A stretch of 24,000 nt of DNA from an uncultured Fusobacteriaceae bacterium (GTDB lineage Bacteria > Fusobacteriota > Fusobacteriia > Fusobacteriales > Fusobacteriaceae): positions 19,006 to 43,005 of the forward strand of contig CAMTIW010000005.1 of assembly GCA_947072665.1 (NCBI GenBank), given 5' to 3'. Below the pieces are notes generated by a model that saw only the letters and a list, made by a program, of their open reading frames with translations, was not told where the DNA came from and did not search any database. A program made the translations under genes and the position numbers. This document shows positions 20,842 through 21,148 of the stretch, one piece after another; position 1 is the stretch's first letter, and each line of letters starts with the position of its first letter.

Positions 20842-20870
20842 TTGACATACTATAAAAATCATGTTATAAT
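20842..20870 (+). promoter_or_regulatory. Consensus sigma70 promoter (orphan, with no downstream CDS)
   Basis: TTGACA (20842..20847), exactly 17 nt of spacer ending in TGT (extended -10), then TATAAT (20865..20870). Confidence 0.8.
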
Positions 20871-20876
20871 AATTAA

Positions 20877-21148
20877 TAGTCATAGAGAAATGACCGAGGC
20901 ATAAAAATAAGAGTTTCCATATTTAAATAAAAAAGACACCAGACGGTTTGTCAATTATGTTAAAAATTTGAAAGTTTTATCAAAGTATGCCGGAAAAATG
21001 TTCACTATTTTGGTGAATGGCGATTTGATAAGTAGCTTTACAGATTTTTTATAATTAAAGCAACCAGACGGTTTGCAGACTTTGTGGGAATTTACTACCA
21101 AAAAGAGAGAACATTATGAGCGACACTAGACAGTCGCTCTTTTTTTTA
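20877..21148 (+). ncRNA. Candidate structured small RNA of about 270 nt, class unknown, bounded by a consensus promoter and an intrinsic terminator
   Basis: No ORF longer than 18 codons. Predicted elements are as follows. 5' hairpin GTCAT-AGAGAA-ATGAC (20879..20894). Hairpin GACACCAGACGGTTTGTC (20935..20952). Long central hairpin 20977..21031 (TTATCAAA/TTTGATAA, GCC/GGC, TTCAC/GTGAA). Hairpin GCAACCAGACGGTTTGC (21060..21076). Terminator at 21118..21148. The 5' end is inferred from the promoter position. Confidence 0.6.
21118..21148 (+). terminator. Intrinsic terminator of the candidate sRNA; overlaps the stop codon of the convergent oxidoreductase gene
   Basis: GAGCGAC (21118..21124) / GTCGCTC (21133..21139) stem with an 8-nt loop, then T8 (21140..21147). 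Confidence 0.8.

Follow-up and report, generated by a model that had tools for sequence, protein, structure and literature searches.

A candidate small RNA gene confined to one species in the gap between recQ and an Old Yellow Enzyme gene of an uncultured Fusobacteriaceae bacterium

What, if not a protein, is specified by the 418 bp (20728-21145) that lie between recQ and an Old Yellow Enzyme (OYE) gene in the genome of an uncultured Fusobacteriaceae bacterium? The gap belongs to a stretch of 24,000 nucleotides (GenBank assembly GCA_947072665.1, contig CAMTIW010000005.1, positions 19,006 to 43,005 of the forward strand), which is called the window here and in whose coordinates all positions are given. 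It is free of credible open reading frames (ORFs), and computation finds in it the signals of a transcription unit, a predicted fold specific to the plus strand and an exactly repeated sequence. These features are most economically read as a separate plus-strand unit of transcription, about 270 nt long, whose predicted fold is stable; its transcription, the stability of the RNA and the nature of any partner are all things that we infer from sequence. Our preferred account, held tentatively and with rather less than even confidence, is that the gap harbors a stand-alone small RNA (sRNA) gene, non-coding and about 270 nt long, which is restricted to a single species and which, given this restriction, would be evolutionarily young.

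The clearest indication of a transcription unit is provided by its two ends. A promoter scan places a sigma-70 promoter on the plus strand at 20842-20870, comprising the -35 element TTGACA (20842-20847), a 17-nt spacer, the TG of an extended -10 element (20862-20863) and TATAAT (20865-20870), and matching the consensus at 12 of 12 positions. When the window was shuffled 1500 times with its dinucleotides preserved, promoters matching at 12/12 positions arose at a rate of 0.075 per 24 kb, and none of the 1500 shuffles contained one with both the TG and the 17-nt spacer; just one more 12/12 promoter occurs in 20 kb of the window, as part of a transposon remnant to which we return below. A terminator scan identifies, 271 nt downstream of the promoter and likewise on the plus strand, an intrinsic terminator (21118..21147) with a 7-bp stem containing five G-C pairs, an 8-nt loop and a U8 tract, the sequence GAGCGAC-N8-GTCGCTC at 21118-21139 being followed by T8. 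Folded together with its flanks (21100-21148) it reaches -13.1 kcal/mol (z -3.9). With a start at about 20877 predicted from the promoter and an end predicted from the terminator, the transcript would cover 20877..21148, or about 272 nt, at a G+C content of 32% in a window of about 27%. A first-pass annotation, made from the letters of this DNA, had described a gap with no credible ORF, a textbook promoter and a clean terminator, and in these respects it was accurate. Promoter, terminator and strand-specific fold are jointly improbable, and it is this conjunction that makes a real transcription unit the best reading.

The neighboring genes define the setting in which such a unit would operate. 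Both are identified from Pfam domains and both lie on the minus strand: recQ at 18958-20727 (DEAD, Helicase_C, RecQ_Zn_bind, RQC and HRDC) and the OYE gene, encoding an NADH:flavin oxidoreductase (Oxidored_FMN), at 21146-22222, with a rubrerythrin gene upstream of OYE in its operon. A plus-strand RNA is therefore divergent from recQ and convergent with OYE, and the U-tract of its terminator overlaps the OYE stop codon (21146-21148). Read on the minus strand, the terminator hairpin is followed by AUAAUGUUCUCUCUUUUU, so that it would be at best a weak terminator for OYE, and the terminator scan found no minus-strand terminator for that gene. A likely promoter for recQ can be read from the sequence on the minus strand, with the extended -10 element TGTTATAAT at 20778-20786 and a weak -35 element, on account of which the promoter scan overlooked it. 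The recQ promoter and the RNA promoter share ATGTTATAAT in inverted orientation, which is listed as an inverted repeat, and their back-to-back arrangement makes any overlap of the RNA gene with the 5' untranslated region of recQ unnecessary. None of the ORFs in the gap is preceded by a plausible ribosome-binding site or encodes a convincing product; the longest, of 48 amino acids (aa), begins with TTG on the minus strand, and the other short ORFs include one of 28 aa on the plus strand, also with a TTG start (20968-21054), and an AUG ORF of 11 codons that runs through the terminator.

The predicted fold points in the same direction as the signals. The plus-strand RNA has a minimum free energy of -64.9 kcal/mol and a z-score of -3.98 against 200 shuffles, the background z for 156 windows of the same length having a mean of -0.43 and a standard deviation of 1.17. 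Of the 85 pairs in this fold 13 are G-U, and the minus strand folds 11 kcal/mol worse and without reproducing the closing stem; the strand preference is judged from this difference in minimum free energy together with the G-U count. The core is predicted as a four-way junction, in which hairpin 1, a central stem and hairpin 2 follow one another inside a closing stem, with helix pair probabilities of 0.71-0.97, an optional A-tract/U-tract extension excepted. Beginning at the 5' end, the plus-strand model contains a hairpin GUCAU-N6-AUGAC (20879..20894, mean pair probability 0.97), a single-stranded stretch that includes GAGG (20895-20910) and then the closing stem P1, whose 5' strand GAGUUUCCAUA (20911..20921) forms 11 bp with the 3' strand UGUGGGAAUUU (21083..21093) at a probability of 0.92. 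Four of the 11 P1 pairs are G-U, so that this stem, which the first-pass annotation did not describe, would form only on the plus-strand RNA. The central stem-loop P3 (20953..21056, -27.5 kcal/mol, z -4.96) comprises 42 bp, is interrupted by the 8-nt bulge GGAAAAAU and is capped by a UUU loop; a long central stem-loop had been proposed at 20977..21031, and while the stem is real its extent was understated. In the model, the G-U pairs and the asymmetry between strands support an RNA-level structure of the plus strand and not a DNA palindrome. The tetranucleotide AGAC occurs five times in the RNA, in four cases unpaired, against 0.94 occurrences expected, a mild indication that a single-stranded motif is repeated.

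Two of these AGAC copies lie within the exact repeat. The GC-rich 13-mer ACCAGACGGTTTG is present at 20938-20950 and 21063-21075, exactly the two copies that had been reported, and is absent elsewhere in the window even when two mismatches are allowed; an exact repeat of at least 13 nt arose in 25 of 5000 shuffles of the RNA. Similarity between the copies continues upstream to span 32 nt with 75% identity, as might be expected of a local duplication. On the plus strand, copy 1 is held in hairpin 1, GACA-CC-AGAC-GG-UU-UGUC (20935..20952, -4.2 kcal/mol, z -0.96), and copy 2 in hairpin 2, GCAA-CC-AGAC-GG-U-UUGC (21060..21076, -5.5 kcal/mol, z -2.4). The small hairpins do form in the predicted fold with the stems first proposed for them, GACA/TGTC and GCAA/TTGC; taken alone they are weak, and 30 of 200 shuffles fold as well as hairpin 1. 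The additional argument that the closing stems differ in a compensatory manner carries little force, there being two copies only, in slipped register. Most of the 3' arm of each hairpin falls within the identical 13-mer, displaced by one base (a 2-nt as against a 1-nt U bulge), so that the supposed compensation comes down to one or two events between two copies, and both closing stems are adequately accounted for by a local duplication followed by one or two changes.

How widely the gene is distributed was addressed by searches at several depths. The species was assembled from runs SRR30830636, -638, -644 and -645. Among same-species Logan assemblies, four carry the RNA gene; its transcribed part is unaltered in all of them, a single-nucleotide polymorphism lies just 3' of the -10 box, and one of the four represents a strain in which the DNA immediately downstream is rearranged. 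One contig, L058, matches the window without a difference across the whole RNA gene and parts from it at 21160/21161, 12 nt within the 3' end of the OYE gene; the sequence beyond the divergence (L058:1-29) is unrelated and not found in the window. A second contig, L059, ends at the same base, and the two together indicate a strain-level breakpoint just downstream of the RNA terminator, with the RNA remaining linked to recQ.

Beyond the species, searches with the OYE and RecQ proteins and contig look-ups yielded, in addition to same-species contigs, three sister-species loci (L055, L056 and L060), the sister species being 90% identical in RecQ and 77-82% in OYE; the contig of L060 starts inside recQ, and the region upstream of recQ lies outside it. 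The RecQ of the window is 90% identical to that of two metagenome-assembled genomes (MAGs) labelled 'Fusobacteriaceae bacterium' and 64-66% identical to that of Ilyobacter, a drop from 90% to about 65% which implies that no intermediate relatives are sampled in the collections. These identities place the source in an uncultured lineage of Fusobacteriaceae outside Fusobacterium proper. A RecQ-based scan of GTDB species genomes returned two close relatives and one Ilyobacter, none with the RNA, and an nhmmer search with the RNA against 56 loci found same-species copies only. In the sister species represented by L002, the minus-strand reading of L002:2700-2990 contains a strong hairpin, GGAGCAGAGGG...CCCTCTGCTTTTT, which constitutes an OYE-to-recQ terminator about 190 nt after the OYE stop. 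The recQ–OYE gap is organized differently in each species.

The tentatively favored reading, a young stand-alone sRNA gene, implies the following sequence of events. Transcription would proceed from the consensus extended -10 sigma-70 promoter and would be halted by the intrinsic terminator just short of an antisense run into OYE, and the RNA would fold as a four-way junction in which identical tips, CC-AGAC-GG, flank the 42-bp stem. Our guess is that it would act in trans, the two tips serving as a bivalent binding surface that may be enlarged by two further unpaired AGAC, one in the 3' junction and one in the terminator loop. The partner might be a dimeric RNA-binding protein, or else an RNA with a CCGUCUGG-like sequence. 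The idea of bivalent binding comes from the most distinctive feature of the RNA, its identical pair of tips on a pseudo-symmetric scaffold.

A number of results weigh against a functional sRNA of this kind. Both small hairpins appear thermodynamically marginal when modeled alone. Flanking genes differ by just 0.2-0.5% among the same-species assemblies, so that identity of the RNA within the species is uninformative. Conservation in related genomes, a test set beforehand, failed, since the closest sister species lack the RNA, even one with recQ–OYE synteny: L002 (RecQ 90%, OYE 82%) keeps the two genes adjacent, with unrelated intergenic DNA, and the RNA is also absent from L001, L055 and L056 (OYE 77%). 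In large collections homologues were sought by exact-pattern searches. A scan of metagenome contigs for two copies of ACCAGACGGTT 95-125 nt apart returned 45 loci, all of which are unrelated tandem or coding repeats on contigs of other composition and none a homologue of the RNA, the single AT-rich locus among them reading as a coding repeat of LPDGL type; pattern scans of viral contigs and blastn of plasmid and phage collections gave nothing above chance. Duplex prediction against 17 translation-start regions in the window produced z-scores from -2.2 to +1.6 and no candidate target.

The strongest alternative, which we consider fairly unlikely, accepts the transcription unit as real and denies it any sequence-specific role in trans. 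The transcript might simply be young and neutral, or it might insulate recQ in cis, strong convergent transcription and the antisense RNA serving to block or destabilize read-through out of the rubrerythrin-OYE operon and into recQ, a gene with a likely promoter of its own. Missing conservation suits a function exerted merely by transcribing the locus, and equally the lack of any function. The weakness of the shared hairpin as a terminator on the OYE strand fits as well, in that read-through transcripts would then be fully antisense to the RNA, and in L002 a conventional minus-strand terminator stands in the gap in place of the RNA gene. The same comparison can be turned around, however, in that a simple terminator suffices in the relative, and insulation needs neither an elaborate plus-strand fold with its 13 G-U pairs nor an exactly duplicated 13-mer.

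Transposition offers a different origin for the duplicated hairpins. On this proposal, which we judge improbable, the core of the RNA (~20917-21086) is a relic or miniature derivative of an IS200/IS605-type element, a palindrome-associated transposable element (PATE), its hairpins being the left-end and right-end sites of a Y1 transposase and its promoter and terminator either incidental or carried in. The resemblance to IS200/IS605 subterminal hairpins is one of geometry: near-identical imperfect hairpins with a bulged T, in direct orientation and 125 nt apart on one strand, in DNA that sister species lack. The segment moreover adjoins strain-level rearrangement breakpoints, and an IS200/IS605-family remnant lies 1.6 kb away in the window, from which it follows that such elements have been active in this genome. 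What tells against the proposal is that the candidate is single-copy, no second copy of the motif being present in the 24 kb or in related loci, that its hairpins bear no relation to the ones in the resident TnpB remnant, that there is no TTAC-like or otherwise recognizable target site at the expected distance from hairpin 1, and that no cognate or other transposase is encoded nearby; a G-U-rich closing stem and a perfect promoter and terminator are left unexplained as well.

The remnant itself, at 22764-23309, is an IS200/IS605-family sequence in whose place the same-species contig L053 has 234 nt of other DNA. It contains a 95-aa ORF (22847-23134, minus strand) whose N-terminus matches the start of TnpB (HTH_OrfB_IS605, E 0.003; IS200_TnpB, E 0.003), both domain matches, from Pfam and NCBIfam, being below threshold, and the nearest database relative of this ORF is an annotated partial transposase from a Cetobacterium MAG. 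Ahead of the ORF lies the other perfect 12/12 promoter of the window (23250..23221, minus strand). The remnant adjoins a TTAC site (GTAA at 23310-23313), and direct 20-mers with the sequence CCCCATAnCTAAAGnnAGGG bracket it at 22765-22784 and 23273-23292. It replaces 234 nt that include the promoter and the N-terminal third of an HxlR regulator gene, beside the rubrerythrin-OYE operon, and a 20-bp hairpin (23533..23487, minus strand) is found between the HxlR remnant and the next gene. The rubrerythrin gene (22243-22686) differs at 12 of 444 positions between same-species strains (2.7%), as against 0.1-0.6% in neighboring genes, which suggests a recombined or fast-evolving segment beside the transposon remnant.

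Whether the RNA belongs to a recognized family can be answered more directly. The sole match in the window that reaches an Rfam 15 gathering score is a fluoride riboswitch at 5705-5767, and there is none in the RNA region; with E values up to 10 admitted, the matches within 20700-21200 are at chance level, the best being L20_leader (20.3 bits against a threshold of 58.7, E 0.15) and all others having an E of at least 0.24. ARAGORN reports 0 tRNA or transfer-messenger RNA (tmRNA) genes in the whole window. The earlier observation that the RNA fails to match tmRNA, RNase P, signal recognition particle RNA or 6S RNA thus stands.

Individual candidates were considered and rejected on specific grounds. 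A PyrR binding loop (CCAGAGAGG vs CCAGACGG) lacks both an Rfam match and a pyr gene. The central stem has a one-sided 8-nt bulge instead of the central bubble of 6S RNA. A retron msr-msd would call for a reverse transcriptase, and the neighbors are recQ and OYE, on the opposite strand. For a TnpB/IscB guide RNA there is no adjacent nuclease gene on the same strand, the TnpB fragment being 1.6 kb off and beyond two genes. Repeat length and spacing are wrong for a CRISPR mini-array, and a type I toxin-antitoxin system is contradicted by the lack of an ORF with a Shine-Dalgarno sequence, or of a transmembrane-like product, in the transcript. Guanidine-II riboswitches (mini-ykkC) have GC-rich stems that end in ACGR tetraloops, about 7-40 nt of linker and a regulated gene downstream. 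The candidate resembles them in having two similar small hairpins in one RNA, with ACGG inside each repeat, and differs in its AU-rich stems; its predicted loop is AGAC, 107 nt separate the two hairpins, no plus-strand gene follows, and there is no Rfam match.

Looser comparisons are instructive. CsrB/RsmZ-type RNAs carry many GGA loops and have CsrA as their partner. The candidate is like them in that one short motif recurs in hairpin loops and unpaired stretches of a single RNA, CC-AGAC-GG occurring twice in addition to two further unpaired AGAC; unlike them it has no GGA motif and only two identical hairpins, and membership is not claimed. In the generic sense the locus is that of a stand-alone sRNA gene, intergenic and ORF-free, and equipped on a single strand with a promoter and an intrinsic terminator. 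The same can be said of FoxI and FoxJ, sRNAs from Fusobacterium nucleatum in the same bacterial family, which are likewise intergenic and ORF-free with a promoter and an intrinsic terminator of their own, and which differ in being short base-pairing regulators with validated targets (PMC11005410). FoxJ is sigma-E dependent (PMC11005410). The candidate RNA, in contrast, has a sigma-70 consensus promoter, a length of ~270 nt and a predicted four-way junction, and shows no sequence or Rfam relationship to either. FoxI depends on sigma-E as well.

Structured RNA candidates associated with Fusobacteria have also been defined bioinformatically. Weinberg et al. (2017) describe motifs with 3' terminators such as FuFi-1, which the candidate resembles in ending with a Rho-independent terminator and lying outside 5' untranslated regions; unlike the candidate, they are conserved in numerous genomes and are defined on that basis (PMC5737381). 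The null result in Rfam 15 argues against identity with them, on the assumption that their models are included in that release. Fusobacteriales-1 is a further motif of this set. By the standard of a conserved structured noncoding RNA class the candidate falls short, having no homologues in sister species or in the collections searched and identical sequence in its other copies. That it is the founding member of an unrecognized class, expressed strongly from its consensus promoter in an unstudied lineage, whose pseudo-symmetric four-way junction would display two identical CC-AGAC-GG hairpins for a dimeric partner, whether protein or repeated RNA site, and whose homologues are too diverged or too poorly sampled to appear in exact-pattern searches, strikes us as decidedly improbable. 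The novelty implied by the first-pass annotation was overstated, and the feature is better described as an unclassified candidate sRNA gene confined to one species.

Very little weight can be given to the remaining ideas, that the 13-bp repeats are DNA operators for a regulator of the recQ and RNA promoters with the fold incidental (ACC-N4-GGT forms a small palindrome, and some 12 helical turns separate the copies), or that the transcript is the mRNA of a tiny peptide, for which short ORFs such as the 28-aa TTG ORF at 20968-21054 exist, or a type I toxin-antitoxin system, given that the repeats lie 70-200 bp downstream of the transcription start and at neither promoter, that the strand asymmetry of the fold favors a structure at the RNA level, and that the ORFs lack Shine-Dalgarno sequences and encode no hydrophobic, toxin-like peptide.

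Two structured elements elsewhere in the window may be recorded here. The fluoride riboswitch (5705-5767, minus strand; 59.1 bits, E 2.7e-14) is accompanied by a terminator-like hairpin at 5719..5691 and stands upstream of a gene of the Na_H_Exchanger family (ORF 4435-5754), not of crcB; the listed start of this ORF overlaps the aptamer, and the true start codon is therefore probably further downstream. On the plus strand, the segment 4201-4472, which spans the gap between an OEP gene and the Na/H-exchanger gene, has a z-score of -5.29, obtained from 25 shuffles only.

The immediate value of the candidate sRNA gene is small, in that it concerns one uncultured species and no partner or target was found. 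It should nevertheless be seen against the background of a family which, as far as is known, has neither Hfq nor ProQ, and whose sRNA biology is for that reason largely uncharted. If transcribed, the gene would add to a poorly studied branch of the Fusobacteriaceae an unclassified and probably abundant sRNA, and, because sister species keep the flanking genes without the RNA, it would be a clean case of an sRNA gene recently born or acquired.

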